64,000 bases of DNA from Gemmatimonadota bacterium (GTDB taxonomy: Bacteria > Gemmatimonadota > Gemmatimonadetes > Longimicrobiales > Gaopeijiaceae), in contig JAXHMG010000003.1 of assembly GCA_034521595.1 (NCBI GenBank), positions 2,656,001 through 2,720,000 on the forward strand, written 5' to 3'. Position 1 is the stretch's first letter, and each line of letters begins with the position of its first letter. A program made the position numbers and the translations under genes. Positions 18,241-54,231 of the stretch are shown here, piece by piece. The notes under the pieces were generated by a model. It saw only the letters and a program-made list of their open reading frames with translations. It searched no databases and was not told where the DNA came from.

Positions 18241-18249
18241 GAGCGACCG

Positions 18250-19167
18250 GTGACGGCGAACGCCCGAAGCGCGGCACGTGGGGCACGGTTTCTCGACCCG
18301 GCGGTGCTCGCCCGGATCAGCAACTTGGAGCTGCTCGCGCGTACCGTGGTCGATGGTTTTCTCACGGGACTGCACCGGTCCCCGTACCTCGGGTTCAGCA
18401 CGGACTTCGCCGAGCACCGCCCGTATATGCCTGGAGACGACATCCGGCGCATCGACTGGCGGTTGTTCGCACGCACGGACCGACACTACATCAAGCTGTT
18501 CGAGGCGGAGACGAACGCGAACTTCGTGGTGCTTCTCGACGTCTCCCGCTCGATGAGCTATGGCAGCCACGAGGTGACCAAGCTGGACTACGCCCGCTAC
18601 CTCGCGGCCTGCCTGGGCTACCTTTCCAACCGCCAGCGAGACAGGGTCGGGCTCGTCACGTTCGATCGGGAGATCGTGGACTATCTGCCGCCCTCCATGC
18701 GCCCGATCGACACCATGCTCCACATGCTCGAGGCGATGCGCGCGGAACGTTCGGGCAACCTGGGACCGCCCCTGCTCCGAGCCACCGAGCTGCTTCGCCG
18801 CAAGGGCATCGTGCTGCTCGTCTCGGACTTCTACGAGGAGCCGGACGACGTTCTGGCCGCGGTCGCGCCGTTACGGTCGCGCGGTCACGACGTGCTCGTC
18901 GTGCAGGTTCTCGATCCGATGGAGCTCGAGTTCTCCTTCGAGGACGCGTCCGGCTTCGAAGACCTGGAAACGGGTGAGCAGATCCCCGTGGTGCCGGAAC
19001 GGCTCCGATCCGAGTATCGCCGCCTGATGGACGAGCATCTGGAAACGCTCGCGACCCGATTCTCGGCGAACGGGATCGACTACCTCCGGCTCGACACGTC
19101 GCAGCCGCTCGACGACGCGCTGCTCCGCTACCTTCTGGTCCGCGAGCGCATGAGGTCCACGCGATGA
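18250..19167 (+). CDS. DUF58 domain (vWA-like) protein
   Basis: GLHRSPYLGFSTDFAEHRPYMPGDDIRRIDWRLFAR; LLDVSRSM. Confidence 0.95.
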   Translation: MTANARSAARGARFLDPAVLARISNLELLARTVVDGFLTGLHRSPYLGFSTDFAEHRPYMPGDDIRRIDWRLFARTDRHYIKLFEAETNANFVVLLDVSRSMSYGSHEVTKLDYARYLAACLGYLSNRQRDRVGLVTFDREIVDYLPPSMRPIDTMLHMLEAMRAERSGNLGPPLLRATELLRRKGIVLLVSDFYEEPDDVLAAVAPLRSRGHDVLVVQVLDPMELEFSFEDASGFEDLETGEQIPVVPERLRSEYRRLMDEHLETLATRFSANGIDYLRLDTSQPLDDALLRYLLVRERMRSTR

Positions 19168-21290
19168 GCTTTCTCGTACCGCTGTTCCTGCTCGGGATGG
19201 TTGGACTCGCGATTCCTCTCGCGATCCATCTCACGCGACGTCAGCGCCGGAACGTGGTCGCGTTCCCCTCCCTCATGTTCCTCGCCAAGATCCCCTACCA
19301 GGAACAGCGGCGCCGCCGCATCCAGCACTGGTTCCTCCTTCTGCTGCGCGCCGTCGCGCTGGCCCTCATCGTCTTCGCCTTCGCCCGGCCGTTCTTCGAC
19401 CGTTCGGACCTCATCGCGGGAACCGCTTCGGGGCCGAGGGAAGTCGTCGTGCTTCTCGACCGATCCTACAGCATGGACGTCGAGGGCCGCATGGACGGAG
19501 CACGGTCCGAAGCGGAGCGGATCTTCGAGCAGCTCGGGCCACTCGACCGGGCCAGCTTGGTGACCTTCGACCGGAGCGCCGCCGTTCTCGTCCGCTCCAC
19601 CTCGGACCGGGGGCGCCTGCGCGCGGCGCTGGATACCGTGCGGAGCGGGTCGGACGTGACCCGATTCAGCCCCGCCCTGAAAGTGGCGCAGACCATCTTG
19701 GAGGAGTCCGAGCTACCCGCTTCGACGGTCCACCTGCTCAGCGACTTCCAGCGAACGGGCTGGTCCGACGACGAGAGCGTGCGCCTCCCGGCGGGGTCGG
19801 AGTTCGTGCCGGTGCCGGTCGGAGGGGAGGCACCGGAGAACGTCCAGGTGGCCGGAGTGTCGCTCCCCCGGACCGTGGACGCCGGCCGAGAGCGGATCAC
19901 GCCGACCGCTCGCGTGGTGCGGCGAGGAGGGGAGGGGCCCACCGAAGTTCCGGTGACGCTCAAGATCGACGGCCAGCCCGTGGAGACGGTCGAGGTGGAG
20001 CTCGGGGGTGAAGGCGCTGCATCGGTGACGTTCCAGCCCGTGACGTTGTCGCGCCCGCACACCCGAGGCACCGTTTCAACCCCGGAAGACGCCGTCCCCG
20101 CCGACGACCGAAGGCACTTCGTCGTCTCACCGGGGACGGTGCTCACGGTGCGCGTCGTCGGATCCACCTCCGGCGAGTCGGATCCGAACCTGTACCTCGC
20201 ACGGGCTCTGGGCATCAGCCAGGACGGACGCTTCGAGGTGACCACGCGGCGCAGGAACGGCCTCGTGCCGGCGGATACCGAGGGGGTCGACGTGCTCGTC
20301 CTCAACGACGTGCGCGTCGACGGGGCGGCGGCGGAGCGACTCCGCTCGTTCGTCGAGAACGGGGGCGGACTGCTGGTCGCGCTCGGAGAGAACGCCACCT
20401 GGCCGGCGTCCGCGGCGGACCTCCTTCCGGGCGACCCGGGTTCACCCCGGGACCGCGAAGCGGGACGGGGGGCCCGGCTCGGACAATTGGCATACGATCA
20501 CCCCGTCTTCGAGCCGTTCGCCGGCCCCAGGGGCGGAGGCTTCGGAAACGCACGCTTCTTCCGAGCGCGTGACCTCACGCCGACGGACTCGGCGGAGGTG
20601 CTGGCCCGCTTCGACGACGGCTCCGTGGCGCTCGCCGAAGCGACCCGGGGCGACGGCAGGGTCCTGGTCTGGACGACGACCCTCGACGCCTATTGGAACG
20701 ACCTCGCATTGCAGCCGGTGTACCTGCCATTCGTCCACCGAATGGCGGAGCACCTCGCCGGTCGCACGGAAGCCACGCCCTGGTTCACGGTCGGCCAGAT
20801 CGTCGACCTTTCGGATCCGGAGATGTTGGAGGCCGCGGGCCTGGACGCGTCCGCCGCGGAGCTCGAGGCGGGAGGAGAGCGCGTGGCGCTCGACCCGTCC
20901 GGAGCCGGCATACGGCTTTCGGAAGGTACCGAGAGCCAGTACCTGACCCTCGCGGAGCACGGGTTCTACATCATCCGCCCCCCGGGCGCCGACCCCGAGC
21001 GCCCCTTCACGCTGGCGGTGAACGTCGATCTCGAGGAGTCCGCGATGAGCCGGATCGACCCCGAGGAAGTCGCCCTCCGGGTGGAAGCCGCGACGGTCGC
21101 GAGCGAGGACGGCGGGACGACCGAGGCCGCCGCGCAGACCCTCCGCATGGAGGATCAGGAACGCCGACAGTCCCTCTGGCGATGGATCCTCGCGGGGGCG
21201 CTGGGACTACTTATTCTCGAGACCTTGATCTCGAACTGGGTGTCGCGCACGAAAGCGGTGGCGTCCCCTCAGACGGGAACGATAGGTTGA
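19164..21290 (+). CDS. BatA-domain plus vWA membrane protein
   Basis: MSFLVPLFLLG...IPLAIHL...FPSLMFL...LLLLRAVAL...FARP; MIDAS DRSYS; C-terminal TM. Confidence 0.9.
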   Translation: MSFLVPLFLLGMVGLAIPLAIHLTRRQRRNVVAFPSLMFLAKIPYQEQRRRRIQHWFLLLLRAVALALIVFAFARPFFDRSDLIAGTASGPREVVVLLDRSYSMDVEGRMDGARSEAERIFEQLGPLDRASLVTFDRSAAVLVRSTSDRGRLRAALDTVRSGSDVTRFSPALKVAQTILEESELPASTVHLLSDFQRTGWSDDESVRLPAGSEFVPVPVGGEAPENVQVAGVSLPRTVDAGRERITPTARVVRRGGEGPTEVPVTLKIDGQPVETVEVELGGEGAASVTFQPVTLSRPHTRGTVSTPEDAVPADDRRHFVVSPGTVLTVRVVGSTSGESDPNLYLARALGISQDGRFEVTTRRRNGLVPADTEGVDVLVLNDVRVDGAAAERLRSFVENGGGLLVALGENATWPASAADLLPGDPGSPRDREAGRGARLGQLAYDHPVFEPFAGPRGGGFGNARFFRARDLTPTDSAEVLARFDDGSVALAEATRGDGRVLVWTTTLDAYWNDLALQPVYLPFVHRMAEHLAGRTEATPWFTVGQIVDLSDPEMLEAAGLDASAAELEAGGERVALDPSGAGIRLSEGTESQYLTLAEHGFYIIRPPGADPERPFTLAVNVDLEESAMSRIDPEEVALRVEAATVASEDGGTTEAAAQTLRMEDQERRQSLWRWILAGALGLLILETLISNWVSRTKAVASPQTGTIG

Positions 21291-21314
21291 GGTGAGAGCC
21301 ACGCTGGAGGAGAC

Positions 21315-24300
21315 ATGACCGATTCGGAGCGAAGCATGGCGGACCGGAGATTGACCAACCTCGTCCGTACGGTCCGCAGACGCTGGAAGCTGCGTCTCGC
21401 GCTCCGTGGCCTCGCGTGGGCGACCGGCATCTCCGTCCTCGTCTTCCTCCTCGCGGGGGTGGCGGTGGAACGGGCCCGTTTCTCGCCGGAAGCCCTGCTC
21501 TGGCTGCGCCTCGCCAGCTGGGGCACGCTCGGCCTGACGTTCTTTCTCTTCGTCGTGCGCCCGCTCCTTCGACCGGTGACGGACAGCCAGGTGGCGCTGT
21601 ACCTCGAAGAGCACGAGCCTTCGCTCCAGCATGCCTTCGTGAGCGCGCTCGAAGCGTCGCGCAATCCGGGCTTTTCGCGGGGGCTGAGTGGACGGGTCCT
21701 GGAGCATGCCCTCGACCGTGCCGCCGCGGTCGAAAATGGGCGACGCGTGGAGCAAGGTGCGCTCTACCGCTTCGGGGGCGCGCTCACCGGTATCGTGGTG
21801 GCGAGCCTGCTCCTGGCGGTCCTCGGACCGACGTCTCTCCGCCACGGAGTCGGCGCGCTCCTCGCACCGACGCGCGACGCCGCCACCGTGAACCCGTACG
21901 CCATGGATGTGGAGCCCGGGAACACCGCGATCGCCCGTGGATCCGACCTCGTCGTACGCGCGGCTCCGCGAGGGTTCGAAGCCGGCGAGGTGTCGATCTT
22001 CACGAGCTCGGGTGAAGGAACGGGCTTCCAACGGCTCAGCATGCTCCCGAACGAGAGCGGATTGTTCGAGGTCATGCTTCTCGGCGTCGAACAGGATACC
22101 CGGTACTTCGTGGAGGCATCCGGCGTCCGCTCGCCCACCTTCACCGTCGAGGTGGCGGAGCTGCCCTACGTGGAGAACCTCGACCTCACCTACCACTTCC
22201 CCGACTATACCGGTCTCTCACCCAGGGTGGTCGAAGGCGGAGGAGACGTCGCGGCACTTCCCGGAACGGTCGTCGAGCTGAGCATCTCCTCGACGATCGC
22301 GACACCGGGCGGACGACTTCTGCTCGACGGCGAGGCCGCGAGCGAGCTCGAAGTCGGAGCGGACGGCACGCTCAGCACGCGGTTCACGGTGGAAGACACC
22401 GGCCTGTATGCGATCGAGCTGGCCCGCGACAACGGTGAGATGGTTTCGGCTTCTCCGGAGTACACCATCGACGTCTTGCAGGACATGGAGCCCTCCGTCC
22501 ACTTCTCGGAGCCCGGTCGGGATATGCCGGCCTCCCCCATCGAAGAGGTCTACCTCGAGATGGAGGCGCTCGACGACTACGGCATCGGGGATCTGCGGCT
22601 CGTGTACTCGGTCAACGGCGGAGCGGAGGACACGGTCTCGGTATTCCGCACGGACGGTCCACCCCTCCCGGAGGTCTCGGCCGGACATACGCTCTACCTC
22701 GAGGAGTGGCAGCTCGAGCCCGGAGATCTCGTCTCCTACTACGCGTTGGTGCGCGACAATCGCCGGCTCGGCTCGGAGCAGGTCGTCGCCAGCGACATGT
22801 ACTTCCTCAACGTGCGTCCGTTCGAGCGCGAATACCGTGAAGCGGAGCAGCAGGGCGGCGGCGGCCAAGCCGGCGGGGCCCAGGGGGCCGAGACGGCCCT
22901 GTCCGAGATGCAACGCCAGGTCATCTCCGCGACCTTCAATTTGATTCGCCAGCGCGACAGCTACGCCGAAGGCGAGTTCGCCGAGAACGTCGTCAGCGTC
23001 GCGCTCGCCCAGGAACGGCTCCGCGAGCAAGTCACGACCCTCCTCGAGCGGATGGGGAACCGCGGCTTGACCGAGGAGGACCCCGGATTCCGAGACGTCT
23101 CCGCGATCCTTCCCGACGCCGCGGACGCCATGACGCGCGCACACGAGCTCCTGACGGACGAGGCCCTCCAAGACGCCCTTCCGGTCGAGCAGAAGGCCCT
23201 ACGGTTCCTCCAACAGGCGGAAGAGACCTACGAGCGGTACGTCACCACCTCCCAGAACCAGCAAGGAGGGGGCGGCGGGGGTGGCAACCCGGCCGCGGAC
23301 GATCTCGCCGACCTGTTCGAGCTCGAGCTGGACAAGCTGCAGAACCAGTACGAAACCGTGCGGCGGGGTCAACAACAGCAGGCGGACGCCCAGGTCGACG
23401 AGATCATGGAAGAGCTCGAGGAGCTGGCGCGCAGACAGGAGCAGGAAGCGGAGCGGCAGCGTCGGCGCGCTCAAGCCGGCATGCAGGGCACTGCGGGCGC
23501 GGGCGCGTCTCAGCGGAATCTGGCCGACGAAACCGAAGAAGCGGCGCGACAGCTCCAGCGACTTGCACGCGAGCGCGCCGACCAGGAGTTGGAGCGGACC
23601 GCACGCGCCATGCAGGAGGCGGCGGAAGCCATGAGACGCTCCGCGTCCGAAGGTGGGAACACCGCCTCCACGGGAGCGTCGGAGGCCCTCCGCAGACTCG
23701 AAGACGCACGCCGGTCCCTCCAAGAGAACCGCGCCGGACGGGCGGGGCGCAGCGCCCAGGAGGCGCTACGCCAGGTGGACGAGCTACAGCGTCAGCAGCG
23801 CGAAGTGCAGCGGGCGGTGCGGGATCTTCCCTCCGGCGGCGAGGAACGCCGAGAGGTCGTGGACCGCTTGCGCGAGCGGAAGAACCAGATGACCGACGCG
23901 GTCCGGCAGCTCGAACAGGAGCTCGACCGCTCCGCGAGCTCGGCCCAGCAAGAAAATCCCCAAGCCGCCCGGAAGCTACAGGCAGGAGCCGACCGAATCC
24001 GGGAATCGAGCTTGAAGGAGAAGCTTCAGTACTCGCGGGGCACGATCGTGCAATGGGACCCCGAGTCCGCGTTGACGCTCGAGCTGGGGATCGAAGGTGA
24101 CCTGGAAGACGTGCGCGAGGAGTTGGAAGGCGCGTTGGAGGCGGCCGGCGCCCAGGAGCGCAACCCCCTGACTGAAGCGCTCGACGAAACGCGCGACCTC
24201 GTCCGGGGAATGGAGGCGATGGAGCGCCGTCTCAACGAAGGGTCCAGCCGCGCAGGTGAGCAAGCAGACGAGGCCGGCGACGCTGCCTCCGAGGCCGACG

Positions 24301-24800
24301 GGCAACCGGGCAGAACCCCCGAGGGCACCGGAGAGCCCGGAACGGGCGATACCGCCGGCGCCACGGAGGGCACGACCGACGAGCGGGCGACCGAGGCCCG
24401 CGCCGGAGGCGGTGGTGGCCGGACCCGAGGCGATCCACGGCGCCCCTCGGCGGAAGAGATCCGTCAGTACCGCAACGAGTTCGAGCGAAGGGCCGGACAG
24501 GTCCGAGACGTGCGCGAGCGGCTGGAGGAAGCCGGCCGGTCGACCGAGGACCTACAGTCCGTCCTCGACGCCATGGAGCGACTGGCGCAAGAAGGGGCGT
24601 ACGACGATCCGACTCAGGTCGCGCAGCTTCAGGCCGAAGCGCTGGAGGCGCTGAAACGGCTCGAGTTCGGGCTACGCAGGGAGGTCGAAGGCGAAACCCC
24701 TCAGCGCGCCACCCTCGGTGGATCCGACGACGTTCCCGACGGATATCGGGCGCTCGTCGAGGAATACTACCGAACGCTGGCGCGGGAGGGCGGACGGTGA
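21315..24800 (+). CDS. DUF4175-like large membrane protein with Ig-like domains and long Q/E-rich coiled coil
   Basis: Three N-terminal TM helices; YHFPDYTGL; ALDDYGI; C-terminal VPDGYRALVEEYYRTLA. Confidence 0.8.
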   Translation: MTDSERSMADRRLTNLVRTVRRRWKLRLALRGLAWATGISVLVFLLAGVAVERARFSPEALLWLRLASWGTLGLTFFLFVVRPLLRPVTDSQVALYLEEHEPSLQHAFVSALEASRNPGFSRGLSGRVLEHALDRAAAVENGRRVEQGALYRFGGALTGIVVASLLLAVLGPTSLRHGVGALLAPTRDAATVNPYAMDVEPGNTAIARGSDLVVRAAPRGFEAGEVSIFTSSGEGTGFQRLSMLPNESGLFEVMLLGVEQDTRYFVEASGVRSPTFTVEVAELPYVENLDLTYHFPDYTGLSPRVVEGGGDVAALPGTVVELSISSTIATPGGRLLLDGEAASELEVGADGTLSTRFTVEDTGLYAIELARDNGEMVSASPEYTIDVLQDMEPSVHFSEPGRDMPASPIEEVYLEMEALDDYGIGDLRLVYSVNGGAEDTVSVFRTDGPPLPEVSAGHTLYLEEWQLEPGDLVSYYALVRDNRRLGSEQVVASDMYFLNVRPFEREYREAEQQGGGGQAGGAQGAETALSEMQRQVISATFNLIRQRDSYAEGEFAENVVSVALAQERLREQVTTLLERMGNRGLTEEDPGFRDVSAILPDAADAMTRAHELLTDEALQDALPVEQKALRFLQQAEETYERYVTTSQNQQGGGGGGGNPAADDLADLFELELDKLQNQYETVRRGQQQQADAQVDEIMEELEELARRQEQEAERQRRRAQAGMQGTAGAGASQRNLADETEEAARQLQRLARERADQELERTARAMQEAAEAMRRSASEGGNTASTGASEALRRLEDARRSLQENRAGRAGRSAQEALRQVDELQRQQREVQRAVRDLPSGGEERREVVDRLRERKNQMTDAVRQLEQELDRSASSAQQENPQAARKLQAGADRIRESSLKEKLQYSRGTIVQWDPESALTLELGIEGDLEDVREELEGALEAAGAQERNPLTEALDETRDLVRGMEAMERRLNEGSSRAGEQADEAGDAASEADGQPGRTPEGTGEPGTGDTAGATEGTTDERATEARAGGGGGRTRGDPRRPSAEEIRQYRNEFERRAGQVRDVRERLEEAGRSTEDLQSVLDAMERLAQEGAYDDPTQVAQLQAEALEALKRLEFGLRREVEGETPQRATLGGSDDVPDGYRALVEEYYRTLAREGGR

Positions 24801-42640: not shown

Positions 42641-42946
42641 GTCGGGGGCACGTCAGGGCGTTGGCCCGACGAGCCGAGCACCGGTCGACACTTCCGAGTT
42701 GCGTCGAAGGGCCCGAACCCGAACACTACTTCCCATGTGAGCGGAACGGCGAGCCCGTGAGGGTCCTGCTCCCCCGTGCACGCGGCATCACGCTGCGAGC
42801 GGGCGCGAGGGAGCGGACCCAACACGGGGCTGTTCGGTAGTTGTTGGGAGGCGCCCTGTACATGATGGAGGGGGCGCCCCGGGATGTCGTGACCCGCGGC
42901 GGTGCGCGCCGCGGGATCTTGGTCGATCAATACGAGAGGTACTCGG

Positions 42947-45313
42947 ATGAAGATGTCGAGACGTTGCCTTTTACTAGCGCTCGCCGCCGTTTGGGCGGCT
43001 CCGTTGAGCGCTCAGTCGTTCGGTAACTCGGTCACGGTAGGCGACCGCGAGGTGTTCGTCGGAGAGCCCACGCACGAGATGCGGTCGGGCGTGCTCTACG
43101 TCTTCCGCCCCGACGACTCGGGCGAATGGACTCGAGTCCAGCGCCTCGAAGCTTCCGACGGTCAACCCGGCGACCGATTCGGCATCCGGTCGACGATCCA
43201 CGAAGACGAGCTCTACGTCTCGGCCACGCGCATCGACGACGGAACCGGAGCGGTCTACGTCTTCCGCAAGGACGGGGACGAGTGGGTCGAATCCGGCCGG
43301 CTCGTGACGGATGACCGCTCCCCGGCGGACAGCCTGGGGAGCGGGCTCGACGTGCAAGACGACTGGGCCATGGTCGGAACCATCGGCCAGAACGAAGGGC
43401 GCGGAGCGGTCTACGCCTTCCGCCGTGACGGCGACGAGTGGGTGCAGCACACCAAGCTCGCTCCGGAGAACCTCCAGGCCGAGGACCGTTTCGGCAGCAC
43501 CGTATCGCTCCAGAACGGGTGGGCGCTCGTCGGAGCCCCCTCGCGCGGTGACGAACAAGGCGCGGTCTATACCTTCCGCTACAACGCTTCGTCCGACGAG
43601 TGGGAACCGCGGGGCACCCTCCAGGCACCGAACCTGCAACCGCAGTCGGGCATGGGAAGGGACATCGTGCTGCGTGACGGAACTGCGCTCGTGACGGCCC
43701 CCGGATTTCTGCAAGGCATGGGACTCGTGTTCGCTTACACGCTGGCTAACGAGTCCTGGGAGCTGACCGCCATGCTCTCGCCCTTCCAGATGGAGCCCGG
43801 AGGGCAGTTCGGCTCGTCTCTGAGCTTCGACGGACAAACCGCGCTCATCGGAACGCCCGGCGCCTCGTCCGGAGAAGGGCGCGTCTACGCATTTCGGAAA
43901 GACGAGGAGACCGGAGAGTGGGCTGACGCCCGCCGTCTCGCTCCCGAAGACCTTTCGTCCCAGGATTTCTTCGCGGCCACCGTGGACCAGGCCGGAGGCG
44001 TGGCGGTCGCCGCTTCTCTCGGTCAGGACTACGAAGCCGGCGCCGCCTACGTGCTCGAGCGTTCGGGCAACGAATGGGAGACGGTCGACCGTATCACCGG
44101 CGAAGTCATCGGAATGGAAGCCGTCACCGGGGACGAAGTTCCGTGCTCGGACGACGGTGAGGCGGTCATGTTCGACTGCTCGTCGGTGGACCTGGTCTCG
44201 TTCCTCCCCCTCGGCGACATGGGCGCGGGACGGGGCGTGCGCGCCAACGACGTGTGGGGGTGGACCGACCCGGAGACGGGACGTGAGATCGCACTCGTGG
44301 GCATGACGGACCAGACGGTGTTCGTCGACGTCAGCGACGCGGGGAACCCCTCGTATCTGGGCCGACTCCCCATGACCGAGACGGCCGACGGCTCGACCTG
44401 GCGGGACATGAAGGTCTACGACGATCACATGTACGTGGTATCCGACGGGGCGGGCGAGCATGGCATGCAGGTCTTCGACCTCACCCGGCTCCAGGGGCTC
44501 GACGGCTCGGATCCGGTGACCTTCGACGCGGACGCGCTCTACGACCGCATCAACAGCGCGCACAACATCGTCATCAACGAGGAGACCGGGTTCGCGTACG
44601 CGGTCGGAGCCAGCGCCGGTGGCGACACGTGCGGCGGCGGGCTTCACATGATCGACATCAACCAGCCGACCAACCCCACGTTCGCGGGATGTTTCCAGGA
44701 CACGTCGACCGGACGCCAGCGCACCGGCTATTCGCACGATGCCCAGTGCGTCATCTACCGCGGCCCCGACGAGGACTACCAGGGTCAGGAGATCTGCTTC
44801 GGCTCCAACGAGACGGCGCTCTCGATCGCGGACGTCACGGACAAGGACAACCCCGTCGCGGTGTCGACCGCCACCTACCCGAACGTGGCATACTCCCACC
44901 AGGGCTGGCTCTCCGAGGATCACCGGTACTTCTTCATGAACGACGAGCTCGACGAGATGGGCGGTAACGTGCCCAACACGCGCACGCTCGTCTGGGACAT
45001 CGCCGACCTCGAAGATCCCATTCTCGCCAACGAGTACTTCCACGAGACGAACGCGATCGACCACAACCTGTACGTGCTCGGAAACACGATGTACCAGTCG
45101 AACTACACGAGCGGATTGCGGGTGCTCGACGTTTCCGACCCGGTGAACCCGGCGCCGGTGGGGCACTTCGACACCGTCCCGTACGGAGGCGACGAAGCGG
45201 AGTTCAACGGGTCATGGTCGAACTATCCGTATTTCGAGAGCGGTGTGGTCATCGTCACGAGTCAGCGAGAAGGACTGTTCGTCGTGCGGTACCGCCCGCG
45301 CTCGATCTCCTGA
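42947..45313 (+). CDS. Choice-of-anchor B family protein with N-terminal FG-GAP repeats
   Basis: Signal peptide; FG repeats (GDRFG, DRFGS, GQFGS); NDVWGWTDPETGRE; WRDMKVY; AHNIVIN; YSHQGW; IDHNLY; GSWSNYPYFESG. Confidence 0.9.
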   Translation: MKMSRRCLLLALAAVWAAPLSAQSFGNSVTVGDREVFVGEPTHEMRSGVLYVFRPDDSGEWTRVQRLEASDGQPGDRFGIRSTIHEDELYVSATRIDDGTGAVYVFRKDGDEWVESGRLVTDDRSPADSLGSGLDVQDDWAMVGTIGQNEGRGAVYAFRRDGDEWVQHTKLAPENLQAEDRFGSTVSLQNGWALVGAPSRGDEQGAVYTFRYNASSDEWEPRGTLQAPNLQPQSGMGRDIVLRDGTALVTAPGFLQGMGLVFAYTLANESWELTAMLSPFQMEPGGQFGSSLSFDGQTALIGTPGASSGEGRVYAFRKDEETGEWADARRLAPEDLSSQDFFAATVDQAGGVAVAASLGQDYEAGAAYVLERSGNEWETVDRITGEVIGMEAVTGDEVPCSDDGEAVMFDCSSVDLVSFLPLGDMGAGRGVRANDVWGWTDPETGREIALVGMTDQTVFVDVSDAGNPSYLGRLPMTETADGSTWRDMKVYDDHMYVVSDGAGEHGMQVFDLTRLQGLDGSDPVTFDADALYDRINSAHNIVINEETGFAYAVGASAGGDTCGGGLHMIDINQPTNPTFAGCFQDTSTGRQRTGYSHDAQCVIYRGPDEDYQGQEICFGSNETALSIADVTDKDNPVAVSTATYPNVAYSHQGWLSEDHRYFFMNDELDEMGGNVPNTRTLVWDIADLEDPILANEYFHETNAIDHNLYVLGNTMYQSNYTSGLRVLDVSDPVNPAPVGHFDTVPYGGDEAEFNGSWSNYPYFESGVVIVTSQREGLFVVRYRPRSIS

Positions 45314-45333
45314 TCGAAGCTGGAGGACACGCG

Positions 45334-47190
45334 TTGCCAGACGCGCATGACACGGACCGGCGAGGAGTGCCGCCGCTCGCTGCGGTGCTCCTCGCCTTGC
45401 TCGCGGGGTCGGCCGGATGCGCCGGAGGTGCGAGCTCCGACCCCGATGCTCCGGCGCCGAGCGGATCGGAAGCGTTCTCGCGGGACATCACGCCGTTCGA
45501 GGTTCTCGATGCCGACGGCACCCCGTACGAGCATCCGTTCCTCGGCGGCTACAACCTTCCCCGGCCTCAACTCGTGGACATCGACGGTGACGGAGACCTG
45601 GACCTCTTCATCCAGGAAGAATCCGGTAAGATCGCCTTCTTCGAACACGTGCCGGAAGAAGAGCCCCGCTTCCAGTGGCGAAGCGATCACTTCCAGGAGC
45701 TCGACGTCGGCGAGTGGTACCGGTTCGTCGATCTCGACCGTGACGGAATTCCGGATCTCCTGGCGGAACAGCCGTACAGCTACGTCCGCTACTACAGGAA
45801 CGTGGGCACCGCGACGGAGCCCCGTTTCGAGCTCGCCGCCGACAGCCTCAAGGACACCTCCGGAGAGCCCATCTTCTCCGACCGCCAGAACATCCCCAAC
45901 GCCACCGACATCGACTGCAACGGGCGTATGGATCTCCTCGTGGGCCGCCTGACCGGAACCATCACCCGGTATCAGGAGAGCGGAACCGACGAGCGGGGGG
46001 CGCCGATGTTCGAGCACATCAACGACCGCTTCGAAGACATCGAGATCGTGGCTCAGTTCGGGAGCCTCCACGGGGCGAACACGATGGCCTTCGGGGACAT
46101 CGACGCAGATGGCGACCAGGACCTCTTCTGGGGTGACTTCTTCGAGCCGGGCATTCTCCTCATCGAGAACGGCGGCACCTGCCAGTCGCCCTCATATCGA
46201 GGCACGCCCCGCCCCTTCCCGCTCGGTGACCCGCTCCTGACGAGCGGTTACAACGCTCCGACCGTCGGGGACGTGGACGGGGACGGCCTTCCGGACATGA
46301 TCGTCGGGGTGCTCGGAGGCGCGTTCAATCCCAACACGACGAGCGTCGACAACCTCAACTACCTCCGACAGCGCCAGGACGGTGGCTTCGAGCACGTGAC
46401 GTCCCGACTGATCTCGATGATCGACGTCGGCAGCGAGAGTGCGCCCGTCCTCGTCGACCTGGACGGCGACGGCGACCTCGATCTCGTGGTCGGCAACAAG
46501 ATCGACCAGGATGACAGTCAGAACGGAAGTCTCACCATCTTCCTGAACGAAGGCACGCCCACCGCCCCTCGCTTCGAAGAAGGGGGGCGGTTGGAGCTCG
46601 GAGGTGGTTATCACCCCGTGCCGGCCTTCGGCGATCTGACTGGGGACGGAGAGGCGGACATCATGCTCGGCACCTGGTCCGACGAGGTCCGCTACCTCTC
46701 CGGCGAGAGCTCCGATCCGACCGAGTTCGAGCTGGTGGACTCGGCATTCGTCACGATCCCGAGAGGTCGCAACACGACTCCGACACTCGGTGACCTCGAC
46801 GGCGACGGAGACCTCGACCTCCTGGTCGGCGAGGCGTCCGGGACCCTCAACTACTACGAGAACGTGGGCACGCGGACGCGACCCGAGTTCGAGCTGGCCG
46901 CCGAGGACTTCGCGGATATCGATGTGGGCCGCCGCAGCGCACCGCGTTTGCACGACCTCGACGGGAACGGCCGACTCGACCTCCTCGTGGGCTCGGAGGA
47001 CGACGGCGTGCACGTCTATCGCAACGTCGGGACGGCCACCGAAGCCGAGTTCGTCCGTGACGGATCGTTGCCCATTCCCGTGCACGGGCTCGCGGTACCG
47101 GCGTTGGGCGACGTGACGGGGAACGGAATGGACGACCTCGTGCTCGGCGGCATCGGCGGAGGGCTGCTGTTCTACCACGGCGGGCGGTAG
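45334..47190 (+). CDS. FG-GAP/VCBS repeat lipoprotein
   Basis: GGAGG RBS with TTG start; lipobox SAGC; many DxDGDGDxDL repeats. Confidence 0.88.
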   Translation: MPDAHDTDRRGVPPLAAVLLALLAGSAGCAGGASSDPDAPAPSGSEAFSRDITPFEVLDADGTPYEHPFLGGYNLPRPQLVDIDGDGDLDLFIQEESGKIAFFEHVPEEEPRFQWRSDHFQELDVGEWYRFVDLDRDGIPDLLAEQPYSYVRYYRNVGTATEPRFELAADSLKDTSGEPIFSDRQNIPNATDIDCNGRMDLLVGRLTGTITRYQESGTDERGAPMFEHINDRFEDIEIVAQFGSLHGANTMAFGDIDADGDQDLFWGDFFEPGILLIENGGTCQSPSYRGTPRPFPLGDPLLTSGYNAPTVGDVDGDGLPDMIVGVLGGAFNPNTTSVDNLNYLRQRQDGGFEHVTSRLISMIDVGSESAPVLVDLDGDGDLDLVVGNKIDQDDSQNGSLTIFLNEGTPTAPRFEEGGRLELGGGYHPVPAFGDLTGDGEADIMLGTWSDEVRYLSGESSDPTEFELVDSAFVTIPRGRNTTPTLGDLDGDGDLDLLVGEASGTLNYYENVGTRTRPEFELAAEDFADIDVGRRSAPRLHDLDGNGRLDLLVGSEDDGVHVYRNVGTATEAEFVRDGSLPIPVHGLAVPALGDVTGNGMDDLVLGGIGGGLLFYHGGR

Positions 47191-51192: not shown

Positions 51193-52041
51193 CTACGGAA
51201 GGTGCTCGACGAGGAGTTGCTGAAGGGTCTCTGGATCGTCCGCGTTGACCCAGTGCCCTCCGTCGACCCGGTGGAGTCGCACCCGACCGTCCGTGGCCCG
51301 GCCCGCCGCCTCGACGCGGGCGCAGGCGTCCTCGTCCAGCACGGTGGAAGCGCTCGCCTTGATCATGTGCACGCGGGCTTGGGCGGGCGGCGCCTCCAGC
51401 ACCGGCCACGCATCCGTGTCGAAGAAGTCGCGAAGCAGGGCCTCCATCTCGTCGGGGTCGACCCGCCACACGAGCTCGTCTCCGACCGGGGAGCGGACGA
51501 GGTTCGTGGCCATCCACTGCGCGACCGGATTCGGGAAGCCCGACGCCTCCACGGCCGCGATCCCCTCGGCACGGTCGGCGAACGGGCCCGGATTCCGTCG
51601 GAGCACCTCGAGCATGGTCCAAGCGCTTCCCTCCGGGGTCCGCGCCGCGGGTGTCGAGTCCACGACCCAGACGCTCCGGGGCACCTCCACCGAGCCCACA
51701 TCCCCGCGGCTCGTTCCGGCGTCACGTAGGTACAGGAGGGCGACCTTCCCTCCGAACGAGTGCCCGAGCACCGCGGTGGGCGCGATCCCGAGATGCTCGG
51801 CCAGCCGCTTGAGGTCGTCCACGCACGCTTCGAGGGTATGCGGCGGCTCGAAGCCCCCCGAGTCACCATGCATCCGAAGGTCGACGGGAATCGCACCCCA
51901 CTCGGGCCGCTCGCGGACCAAGCGCCGAGCCACGGAAGACCAGTTGCGCCCCGCCCCGTAGATTCCGTGCAGGACGAACATCCATCGGTCGGGGTTCGCG
52001 TCGGGGGCTACGATGTGGTCGTGGGCGAGAATCGGTGGCAT
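51193..52041 (-). CDS. Alpha/beta fold hydrolase (YbfF/ABHD11-like esterase)
   Basis: LHGIYGAGRNW; DLRMHGDS; GHSFGGK; GGHWVNAD. Confidence 0.9.
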   Translation of the reverse strand: MPPILAHDHIVAPDANPDRWMFVLHGIYGAGRNWSSVARRLVRERPEWGAIPVDLRMHGDSGGFEPPHTLEACVDDLKRLAEHLGIAPTAVLGHSFGGKVALLYLRDAGTSRGDVGSVEVPRSVWVVDSTPAARTPEGSAWTMLEVLRRNPGPFADRAEGIAAVEASGFPNPVAQWMATNLVRSPVGDELVWRVDPDEMEALLRDFFDTDAWPVLEAPPAQARVHMIKASASTVLDEDACARVEAAGRATDGRVRLHRVDGGHWVNADDPETLQQLLVEHLP

Positions 52042-52164
52042 GTCGGACCAGGTTTCGGGAGATCGTGGCACGCGAAAGGGGAACGGGCGCCCGCAACCTG
52101 CCCGATCCCCACGGAGGAATCAATCGTGTGCCGCCAGGCCCCGCGGTGATCCGGGAGCCCAACG

Positions 52165-52614
52165 TCATTCCACGACCATGGACTCCGCGATCAGCACCAA
52201 GCGCTCCACCGCGACTTCATGACCGGTGGCGTCGAGCTCGGGGCCTTCCATGGCAGTTGGCAAGGCATTCACGAGCCGCCAGGTCTGCACGACACCACTG
52301 CGGTCCTCGGCCAGGAGCTGGATGAGGACCGTCCGCCGGTCGGCCGAGCCGCGCAACGAGGCATCCAGCCATTCGTGCAAGATGGTGTCGCCGATGAGCC
52401 CCCTGCTCAGCGTCGCCGTGATCGGGCTCGCACGTCCGGGGATGAGCCGCGGCGCATTCGTCTTGTAATTCCCCGCACGGTATTGGAGCATCTCCACCGA
52501 CCGGTCGAGTCCGCTCACCGCGCTGAACCCCGCCTGCACCGATTCGGGGTCGAGCCCCTCGAATGACACGAGGAAGTTGAAAGAGCCATAGGGAGTTTCG
52601 CGAAGCACGGGCAT
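52165..52614 (-). CDS. Phage tail-tube protein, T4 gp19 / eCIS Afp1-like
   Basis: PYGSFNFLV...AGFSAVSGL...YRAGN...IPG...TLSRGLIG...EW...RRTVLIQL...VQTWRLVNA...GPELDATGHEVAVERLVL; 149 aa. Confidence 0.88.
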   Translation of the reverse strand: MPVLRETPYGSFNFLVSFEGLDPESVQAGFSAVSGLDRSVEMLQYRAGNYKTNAPRLIPGRASPITATLSRGLIGDTILHEWLDASLRGSADRRTVLIQLLAEDRSGVVQTWRLVNALPTAMEGPELDATGHEVAVERLVLIAESMVVE

Positions 52615-52615
52615 A

Positions 52616-53131
52616 TCAGCCTTCCTGTCGGATGAGATCGTCAAAGACCAGCTCGAGCTCCTCGAGCGCGATGTCGCCGTGAAGCGCATCGTACCGTGGG
52701 CCGGCCCACCGCAACGGCCATGCGCTGGTGATCTTCCAGGTGTACAGGGTCCGTCCCCCGGCACTTTCGAGATGCCCGATCACCACCTGCCGAATCGCGG
52801 GCTTACCGCTCAACGCTTCCCGCCGCCATTCGTAGAGGGTCCGGTCTCCGTCCAGCGCCCGGGTCAACAGGAGCCTGCCGGGACACGCCGGAGCGCTCCA
52901 CAGCACACGCTCCGGATCCCCCGGATCCTCTTTCCGGCTGAGCTCATCCACCTGCGAAGCGAGCTCGAGCCCGGAAACCCGCGTGCACGAAATCGGTATG
53001 CCGGCGATCTCGACCGTGAAATGGGCGGCCACGGTTACCGCGTCGTCCCCACCCCGCCATGGCAGCGGCGTGCGACCCCGCGGGTCCGAATGTGGCGGCT
53101 CGGGCCGGGGAGGCTCGTTCGGTAGCGTCAT
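52616..53131 (-). CDS. Second, more divergent gp19-like tail-tube protein (Afp5-like)
   Basis: HFTVEIAG...RVSGL...LLLTRALDGDRTLYEWR...TWKITSAWPLRWAGPRYDA...IALEELELVFD. Confidence 0.8.
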   Translation of the reverse strand: MTLPNEPPRPEPPHSDPRGRTPLPWRGGDDAVTVAAHFTVEIAGIPISCTRVSGLELASQVDELSRKEDPGDPERVLWSAPACPGRLLLTRALDGDRTLYEWRREALSGKPAIRQVVIGHLESAGGRTLYTWKITSAWPLRWAGPRYDALHGDIALEELELVFDDLIRQEG

Positions 53132-53376
53132 TCGTCCAGCTCATTAATTGGGCGGCGGCGAGGGTGTCCGACGGTGCGGGTCGATGAATACAGGGTTTCC
53201 GTAAGCGTCTTCCGACATCATGCTCCACACACGAGTCTGCCGCCAGGCGCCAGCTGTTCACATCCACGTCGACGGGAACCGGGCATGGCCAACAAGCTAA
53301 CCAACCTACGAGATGTCCATGCCCGCGTGCAGCCGAGACCGCACGACCTCGACCGTGCGGTTTCGGGTCCCCGGTC

Positions 53377-54132
53377 GTGACGCCCCGGCCGGTGCGCACC
53401 ATCGACGACGTCATCAGCGACCTGGACGGAGTCGTGCGCACGTGCCACGAGCGGGGGAGTCGGGCGGGCTACTTCCCCGCGCTGTACAGGCGCGTCACGG
53501 TAGAAGTGCGTGACTGGATCCGTGAGGGACGTTTCGACGACGGAGCGCGCATGGAGCGCTTGGACGTCCTCTTCGCCGACCGATATCTCGAAGCGTGGCA
53601 ACAGCGGGAACGTGGAGAACCGACGAGCCGTTCATGGGGGGTCGCGTTCGACGCGACCGAGGCCTGGTGGCCCATCGTGCTCCAGCACCTCCTGCTCGGG
53701 ATCAACGCGCACATCAATCTGGATTTGGGGATCGCCGCGGCCCGCACGGCACCGGGGGCCGACATTCACGGTCTCGGCGACGATTTCCGTCGGATCAACA
53801 ACCTGCTCGCGTCCATGATCGATGACGTCCAGAAGCGTCTAGCCGACGTTTGGCCATTGTTGCGGCTCCTCGACTGGCTCGGGGGCGACGCCGACGAGGC
53901 CACGATCCACTTCAGCATCGAGCGGGCCCGGGAAGCGGCATGGGCCCTCGCGGTTCGGCTTTCGGCGCTTCCGGAGGCGGCGTGGGCGCACGAGATCCAG
54001 ACCACCGACCGGCTCGTGGCGACGCTCGGACGGGTCGTGCGTCACCCCGGCCCGGGGCTGGGCACCGTGCTCCGGGGTGTCCGCCTCGGCGAGCTCCGCT
54101 CCCCCGAGGGGGTCATCGAGCTCCTTTCCTGA
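53377..54132 (+). CDS. DUF5995 family protein
   Basis: TIDDVISDL; GYFPALYRRVT; RMERLDVLFADRYL; LLGINAHINLDL. Confidence 0.85.
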   Translation: MTPRPVRTIDDVISDLDGVVRTCHERGSRAGYFPALYRRVTVEVRDWIREGRFDDGARMERLDVLFADRYLEAWQQRERGEPTSRSWGVAFDATEAWWPIVLQHLLLGINAHINLDLGIAAARTAPGADIHGLGDDFRRINNLLASMIDDVQKRLADVWPLLRLLDWLGGDADEATIHFSIERAREAAWALAVRLSALPEAAWAHEIQTTDRLVATLGRVVRHPGPGLGTVLRGVRLGELRSPEGVIELLS

Positions 54133-54231
54133 GGAGACGGTCCCAGCGTACCCTCCCTGCACGCACTCACCCGTCGAGGAGTCATCCCCCCGGTGTGTAC
54201 CCAACACCGGCGACTCTGCGTGTTCGCATCG

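Follow-up and report, generated by a model that had tools for sequence, protein, structure and literature searches.

Two adjacent tube-fold genes, here called tubeA and tubeB, lie on the minus strand of a 64,000-nucleotide stretch of a Gemmatimonadota genome (G000:C3:2656001-2720000 of the source genome G000; the window, in what follows, is this whole stretch). Our analysis indicates, with what we judge to be an even chance of being right, that the pair is a selected accessory module which derives from the inner-tube genes of extracellular contractile injection systems (eCIS) and works without a baseplate and, in G000, without a sheath. Most probably the tube proteins now serve a different use. 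Contractile injection systems (CIS) are treated as all-or-none machines. The assembly of G000 comprises 3.49 Mb in 3 contigs with 67% G+C and is estimated to be 93.25% complete. The gene arrangement described in an earlier sequence-only reading of the window, two adjacent minus-strand open reading frames (ORFs) that are 1 nt apart with an AGGAAGG in the end of the first, can be read directly from the sequence.

The assignment to the gp19 tube family was examined with the Pfam profile PF06841 (Phage_T4_gp19, gathering cut-off 28.2 bits) and with TIGR02241 (cut-off 62.4 bits). Both proteins pass PF06841 and cover positions 2–133 of its 134 positions, tubeB with 100.2 bits (E 1.1e-28) and tubeA with 56.8 bits (E 2.7e-15), and at E-values of up to 1 PF06841 is the sole Pfam family listed for either protein, with no Hcp family among the matches. 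With TIGR02241, tubeB passes at 90.9 bits, and tubeA with 55.9 bits stays below the cut-off. Neither protein reaches the equivalog cut-offs of the NCBIfam models CIS1_fam and CIS5_fam (220 and 260 bits, respectively), as tubeB scores 21.6 and 72.5 bits and tubeA 47.6 bits (CIS5). The AlphaFold models of tubeB and tubeA have predicted local distance difference test (pLDDT) values of 75.8 and 74.5, respectively; the hairpin regions are of low confidence, and residues 1–33 of the tubeA model are mostly below a pLDDT of 50. For both models the best Foldseek matches are eCIS inner tubes (probability 1.00, template modelling score 0.52–0.70), the top structures being the inner tubes of PVC, AFP, AlgoCIS, the Anabaena CIS and the Streptomyces CIS. 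The E-values range from 4e-9 to 1e-7 for tubeB and from 1.8e-9 upwards for tubeA (PVC, AFP and AlgoCIS tubes). Phage tubes and Hcp rank far behind the eCIS tubes in the structure search, and in sequence and structure searches alike phage tubes match at E 1e-4 and weaker. As judged from these models, both proteins have the tube fold, a beta-sandwich with one helix and a long hairpin.

With regard to its sequence, tubeB is a near-canonical inner tube protein of the Cis1/Afp1/Pvc1 type. Its profile matches solved Cis1-type tubes with E-values from 8.1e-36 (9r9h_B) to 6.7e-24, and the matches to 9r9h_B, 7b5h_AN, 7adz_1a, All3324, AlgoCIS Cis1, Afp1 and Pvc1 are stronger than those to Pvc5/Afp5. 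It has 37 strongly conserved positions in common with 59 eCIS-embedded first tubes; only 3 of the positions conserved in eCIS are relaxed in tubeB, and 4 clade-specific substitutions are located in or beside the long hairpin (residues 37–55). The second protein, tubeA, is a diverged paralogue with a remodelled gp19 domain, a changed hairpin region and a proline-rich arm. It is 27% identical to tubeB in a profile alignment, matches the same set of tubes much more weakly, does not contain the PYGxFNF and YRxGN motifs of Cis1-type tubes and is also unlike the Cis5-type second tube. Its own motifs are strongly conserved among 21 aligned proteins of a family of 22. The N-terminal arm consists of about 30 residues, is rich in proline and is predicted to be disordered. 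Distant members of the family share the residues with which this arm begins, from which we argue that the long tubeA start is real. The tubeA type is rare, with 9 matches at E 1e-30 or better among 1.84 billion representatives. A tree calculated from 141 tube domains places tubeA on a long branch beside the Gemmatimonadota tubeB clade with 85% support, which is under the star threshold; this position suggests that tubeA may have arisen by a lineage-specific duplication. Many distant matches of the tubeA profile (P0076, P0092, P0117, P0123, P0139, P0151 and others) are proteins of 300–335 amino acids with a C-terminal tube domain that is preceded by about 180 residues of unassigned nature.

Selection on the pair was assessed by the ratio of nonsynonymous to synonymous substitution rates (dN/dS), calculated according to Nei and Gojobori for 10 pairs among five lineages, in all of which both frames are intact. 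The ratios amount to 0.22–0.34 for tubeA and 0.16–0.41 for tubeB and are not near 1, although they are rough, as the synonymous divergence (dS) of 0.4–1.2 is close to saturation. When G000 is compared to its congener G003, tubeA and tubeB show ratios of 0.23 and 0.19, respectively, next to 0.15 for QueG, 0.30 for GT2, 0.14 for MazG and 0.16 for DUF5995, which served as controls, at protein identities of 67–72% for the tubes and 67–77% for the controls. The pair thus evolves under the same constraint as the neighbouring housekeeping genes. The junction between both genes is also conserved: its 1-nt TGA-N-ATG form is kept in six of the eight loci with a located tubeB start, the gaps in the other two being 7 nt and 29 nt, while a ninth locus gave no pattern match. 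Since the tubeB start follows the tubeA stop after a single base, the two proteins would be made together by translational coupling.

These observations bear on one of the explanations offered by the sequence-only reading, that of a decaying remnant. A slowly decaying, functionless leftover of a lost eCIS cluster would be in line with the several origins of orphan tube modules from eCIS tubes, with one genome that harbours a fragmented eCIS cluster (L125) besides its orphan pair and with the lack of the pair in three of the seven genomes of the genus. Such a leftover is nevertheless hard to reconcile with frames that stayed intact in five lineages at a dS of about 1, with dN/dS values equal to those of the flanking housekeeping genes, with the conserved coupling junction and with the strongly conserved motifs of tubeA, and we consider it quite improbable.

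The rest of an injection machine was not found in G000, which we prefer to calling it absent because about 7% of the marker genes are missing from the assembly. The PF06841 profile search of this genome returned these two genes only, and no match was obtained for Phage_sheath_1, Baseplate_J, GPW_gp25, Phage_GPD or VipB, the last of these (VipB/TssC) being the sheath family of type VI secretion systems (T6SS); Phage_sheath_1C gave one sub-threshold match of 15.3 bits. When all ORFs of five eCIS-bearing loci from the same order were searched against G000 with tblastn, only the tube pair and unrelated flank genes were recovered, and the sheath of a congener recovered nothing. In addition, we employed local profiles, comprising six hidden Markov models (HMMs) from the phylum's eCIS proteins and lone sheaths and one for DUF5995. 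The sheath, terminator, baseplate, hub, Cis7-type and lone-sheath profiles had no significant match in G000; the tube and DUF5995 profiles run alongside matched the two tubes and DUF5995. One 15.7-bit match of the local sheath profile (G000:C2:83-400) was dismissed as a chance match. It falls on an ORF at the contig start that reads as antitoxin-like, with a second small ORF after it. Accordingly, the earlier finding of tube genes without a machine is valid for the whole assembly and not just for the window, since Pfam, tblastn and local HMMs agree on it; neither in the window nor in the 93%-complete assembly was a sheath, Baseplate_J, gp25, hub or terminator found beside the tubes. An assembly break that splits an eCIS cluster is excluded by the location of the pair at 2.7 Mb in a contig of 3.1 Mb.

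The sequence-only reading had also considered that the pair supplies an eCIS encoded elsewhere. Spare or alternative tube subunits for a complete CIS, located in the unassembled 7% or too diverged to be detected, are conceivable in a genome that is 93% complete, and orphan hcp islands of T6SS are thought to work as spare tubes (PMC13098142). However, six machine families, the eCIS proteins of the same order and the local HMMs all gave no match in G000, Baseplate_J was found in none of the seven GTDB clade genomes, and neither Baseplate_J nor gp25 was found in the three pair-bearing congeners G002, G003 (98% complete, 7 contigs) and G004 in a search in which the control genome G033 was positive. 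Moreover, no effector-immunity pair stands beside the tubes. This supply role is therefore unsupported, and we see only a very slim chance for it.

The pair is present in four of the seven genomes of the genus (G000, G002, G003 and G004), with 70–74% identity of tubeB in the other three, each of which has exactly two PF06841 matches. Further carriers are one metagenome contig (L030), the only relative returned by a search of metagenome contigs, and four GTDB species genomes (L044–L047) with 54–66% identity. In G000, G002 and G003 the pair occupies the same slot between a hydrolase gene and QueG; in G004 it is found at another place, after a major facilitator superfamily transporter gene. Since the same interval is filled differently among congeners, the pair is an accessory module in a variable slot. 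This slot (window 52072-54231) contains the tube pair and DUF5995 in G000, the pair together with an amidohydrolase and transporters in G003, the pair and an FtsX fragment in G002, PadR and MacB/FtsX in G005, and a PAS kinase and MacB/FtsX in G001 (intervals in L016, L018, L136 and L137).

A variable slot and a patchy distribution would also suit an anti-phage device, which the sequence-only reading had listed as a decoy for phage tail assembly. In such a device tube subunits would enter or cap growing myophage tails and poison their assembly; they might co-polymerise by conserved interfaces, and the changed hairpin of tubeA could terminate the growing tube. Yet a search against PADLOC-DB 2.0 at E-values of up to 0.01 gave no match for tubeA, tubeB, DUF5995, the hydrolase or the G003 sheath, and the neighbours are housekeeping genes rather than a defence island. 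As the pair evolves at the rate of housekeeping genes and shows no trace of an arms race, and the nearest relatives are eCIS tubes and not phage tubes, we regard this explanation as improbable.

A more serious competitor arises from the clade itself, since six of the seven GTDB clade genomes carry exactly one Phage_sheath_1 gene at a locus away from the pair, with no other CIS profile hit in the available flanks. The pair might hence be part of a dispersed sheath and tube set without baseplate, in which the lone sheath wraps a tubeA/tubeB tube into a cytoplasmic sheathed filament, the sheath of G000 having been lost or lying in a gap. The search of 46 other genomes of the family, which found no sheath and no pair, fits this idea, as does the sheath of G003, which adjoins the orthologue (68% identical) of the DUF5995 gene flanking the pair in G000. 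The correspondence is incomplete, however: G000 and G002 possess the pair and no sheath was found in either, G001 has a weak sheath match (29.1 bits) and no pair, and both are missing from G005 and G006. Judged by eye, there are also two dissimilar sequence types among the lone sheaths, and as the clade genomes are mutually related and incomplete, the co-occurrence of sheath and pair is weak evidence. Overall, we consider such a filament unlikely, if still credible.

The lone sheath of G003 is a 382-aa protein with Phage_sheath_1 and Phage_sheath_1C matches (L028:15683-17745; G003:C1, ~970.7-972.7 kb). Its gene is located directly downstream of DUF5995 and flanked by DUF5916, LysE and VWA genes, with no other CIS gene nearby. 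A lower G+C content adjacent to it had raised the idea of a prophage, which was abandoned because the genes at this place are ordinary cellular ones according to Pfam. Further Gemmatimonadota loci with a lone sheath gene are L026, L121, L122, L123 and L124 (G004, G331, G329, G330 and G332) and L032 (G070), again without another CIS profile hit in the available flanks, and G070 has no PF06841 tube.

Tube genes without a machine are not confined to this clade. A search with patterns derived from the Gemmatimonadota clade, which makes the sample a biased one, gave 218 related loci among GTDB species genomes, and we sorted the best 80 of them by means of the local profiles. The canonical eCIS order, i.e. 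Pvc16, sheath, tube, sheath, tube, Cis7-type tube, hub and baseplate, is displayed by 59 of the 80 and was confirmed by Pfam on three of these. The remaining 21 have tube genes only: seven represent the Gemmatimonadota clade, and the other 14 belong to Gammaproteobacteria, Burkholderiales, Acidobacteriota, Actinomycetota, Chloroflexota, Chitinophagales and one more Gemmatimonadota, with three tube genes each in the Gammaproteobacteria. Some of these tube-only loci have short flanks. In whole-genome searches of the 21 genomes Phage_sheath_1 was not found in 13 and Baseplate_J not in 18, and these include a Burkholderiales chromosome that is complete at 5.3 Mb. The tube-only label requires 5 changes on the tree of tube domains, and because at least three of them are forced by starred branches, the arrangement arose more than once. 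No non-tube family is shared as a neighbour by more than five of the 21 loci. Among 301 genomes sampled evenly across the phylum, PF06841 is found in 29 and Phage_sheath_1 in 19, and a comparison of both lists gives 12 genomes with a tube and no sheath (one being G192, unpublished). The neighbourhood survey suggested by the sequence-only reading thus yields a recurring arrangement. We tentatively propose, as a possibility that we hold with less than even confidence, that tube-only modules form a recurrent, undescribed class, in which a canonical stacking tube and one or two remodelled paralogues are co-translated and build an autonomous cytoplasmic ring or tube, with no baseplate and often no sheath, for a purpose other than injection. 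The Gemmatimonadota pair would be one selected example, with parallels in Gammaproteobacteria, Burkholderiales, Actinomycetota, Acidobacteriota and Chloroflexota.

Several of these loci differ in their details. Four loci from metagenome-assembled genomes (MAGs) of Gammaproteobacteria (L048, L050, L051 and L094) have one divergent tube gene and two in a row, and the last tube gene of L048 encodes a 321-aa protein with a C-terminal gp19 domain according to Pfam. L050, L051 and L094 share a neighbour family in blastp clustering, the L051 member of which is a patatin-like phospholipase (Pfam). In L125 (G337:C8:1-10000, an Actinomycetota MAG) the eCIS cluster is apparently broken, with many short profile hits in different frames, and G337 also carries a divergent orphan tube pair elsewhere (L061). 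A different sheath-less cluster occurs in other Gemmatimonadota (L127:1897-12030, L129 and L130; G119, G156 and G172). It encodes two OmpA-domain proteins, a 505–578-aa protein without known family, a 320-aa unassigned protein, a 656-aa fn3 protein and a member of the Hcp family. In addition, it encodes one or two proteins of ~400 aa that are extended at the N-terminus and contain either a single gp19 domain or two; G245 and G192 also gave weak double gp19 matches of this type.

How the pair might work can be outlined as follows. Made together, tubeA and tubeB would form hexameric rings like those of Hcp, or short tubes, in which tubeB would be the subunit that stacks and tubeA would have a specialised role, possibly as a nucleator, cap or adaptor. 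The assembly would be intracellular, would need no baseplate and in G000 no sheath, and could be a container or chaperone, as is Hcp, or a scaffold. Among the four explanations put forward by the sequence-only reading, a domesticated sheath-less tube or ring system fits best; the remnant is disfavoured. Several points weigh against a selected module that functions independently of a machine. The lone sheaths in six of the seven clade genomes mean that the tubes may normally work with a sheath, lost or unassembled in G000, and an assembly of 93% completeness in 3 contigs could miss a partner. The pair is dispensable, being found in four of the seven genomes of the genus, the slot of G005 and G001 holds other genes with no trace of tubes, and the flanking genes vary between genomes. 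The several origins of orphan modules would also fit repeated partial decay of eCIS. Finally, with dS near saturation the estimates of constraint are coarse, and expression and assembly of the pair are putative.

The features of the locus are compiled in Table 1. The tubeB frame extends to an upstream GTG (52764) in the ORF listing; we chose the downstream ATG since this start is common to all orthologues. The AGGAAGG preceding it is situated within the 3′ end of tubeA.

Table 1. Genes and junction of the tube pair locus, in window coordinates
Feature	Position	Strand	Description
tubeA, upstream tube-fold gene	52616-53131	-	171 aa, ATG start; Pfam PF06841
tubeB, downstream tube gene	52165-52614	-	149 aa, ATG start; Pfam PF06841 and TIGR02241
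Coupling junction	52612..52626	-	AGGAAGG 52626-52620; TGA 52618-52616; base 52615; ATG 52614-52612
Alpha/beta hydrolase	51193-52071	-	Pfam Abhydrolase_6 and Abhydrolase_1; 93 nt downstream of tubeB
DUF5995 gene, divergent to tubeA	53377-54132	+	Pfam PF19458, E 7.6e-73

The local gene order is panB, panC and a histidine kinase gene, the hydrolase, tubeB and tubeA, DUF5995, and then QueG, a family-2 glycosyltransferase, MazG and an alcohol dehydrogenase. The neighbours named earlier as an esterase and DUF5995 correspond to the Pfam assignments of an alpha/beta hydrolase and PF19458. Neither neighbour stood up as a component of the module. DUF5995 was rejected as a general partner: within the phylum, 10 of 301 genomes contain it in unrelated contexts, in some cases fused to cyclic nucleotide (cNMP)-binding domains, and within the clade 3 of 10 genomes do, with a CIS gene beside it only in G003. 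The DUF5995 gene is probably not part of the module. The hydrolase was rejected as an effector, as orthologues with 63–74% identity are conserved at the same position in congeners with and without the pair. It may be co-transcribed with the pair and is not specific to it.

In a Pfam scan of 36 further ORFs of the window no sheath, baseplate, spike, terminase or integrase family was found, which is in agreement with the sequence-only reading; portal and capsid families were likewise not found among these ORFs, the rest of the genome not having been searched for phage genes. The 18 other ORFs scanned in the first 36 kb of the window are ordinary cellular genes. The impression that A/T-ending codons mark the pair off from its neighbours did not survive closer inspection, since the G+C content at third codon positions (GC3) of 0.78 for tubeA and 0.82 for tubeB is inside the range of 0.74–0.86 of ten neighbouring genes; the overall G+C content of the pair is within the neighbours' range as well. 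Elsewhere in the window, two large FG-GAP repeat proteins are encoded side by side (42902-47190), and a run of DUF58, BatA/VWA and DUF4175 genes extends over positions 18241-24800. A lookup of sequencing runs located G000 DNA in salt pan metagenome runs, from which it may originate, with small shares in sediment runs, and returned no RNA run.

The pair persists under purifying selection in genomes in which no baseplate was detected, and similar tube-only modules are found in at least six phyla. If the proteins self-assemble, the tube fold would have found a further use apart from injection, be it as a container, a chaperone or a scaffold, and structural work and protein engineering would gain a minimal tube of two components. 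For genome annotation, the label 'phage tail protein' on such genes is no sign of a prophage or an eCIS. We found no description of sheath-less gp19 tube pairs in the main texts of open-access papers and bioRxiv. The criteria of eCIS surveys (Geller et al. 2021, PMC8213781; Chen et al. 2019, PMC6899500), according to which the present locus does not count as an eCIS locus, excluded two-gene modules by design, and orphan or remnant loci are not mentioned in the examined parts of the latter survey. Two-gene tube modules never entered the counts of the large surveys, which retained near-complete loci only.

When compared to known systems, the pair shares its Pfam family and fold with the Cis1/Afp1/Pvc1 tubes (6rao, 6j0b, 7adz, 7b5h, 9qgl and 9r9h). 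These tubes are encoded in clusters with a Pvc16 terminator, sheaths, a Cis5 tube, a Cis7-type tube, a hub and a baseplate, whereas none of these was found with the pair in the genome, and tubeA is neither of the first-tube nor of the second-tube type of eCIS. The closest analogy is provided by the orphan islands of T6SS, which comprise hcp, vgrG and PAAR genes, including hcp-hcp pairs, away from the main cluster (PMC13098142). Orphan hcp islands usually also hold genes for effectors and immunity proteins, and they are presumed to supply a complete T6SS at another place in the genome. They resemble the present pair in that tube-fold genes, sometimes paired, are detached from a machine cluster, and differ from it in that here the proteins are gp19 members, the tubes have no effector-immunity pair beside them and no complete system was found. 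The likely source of the genes are the eCIS loci themselves, as the nearest non-orphan relatives of tubeB, with 45–48% identity, reside in eCIS loci of the same order.

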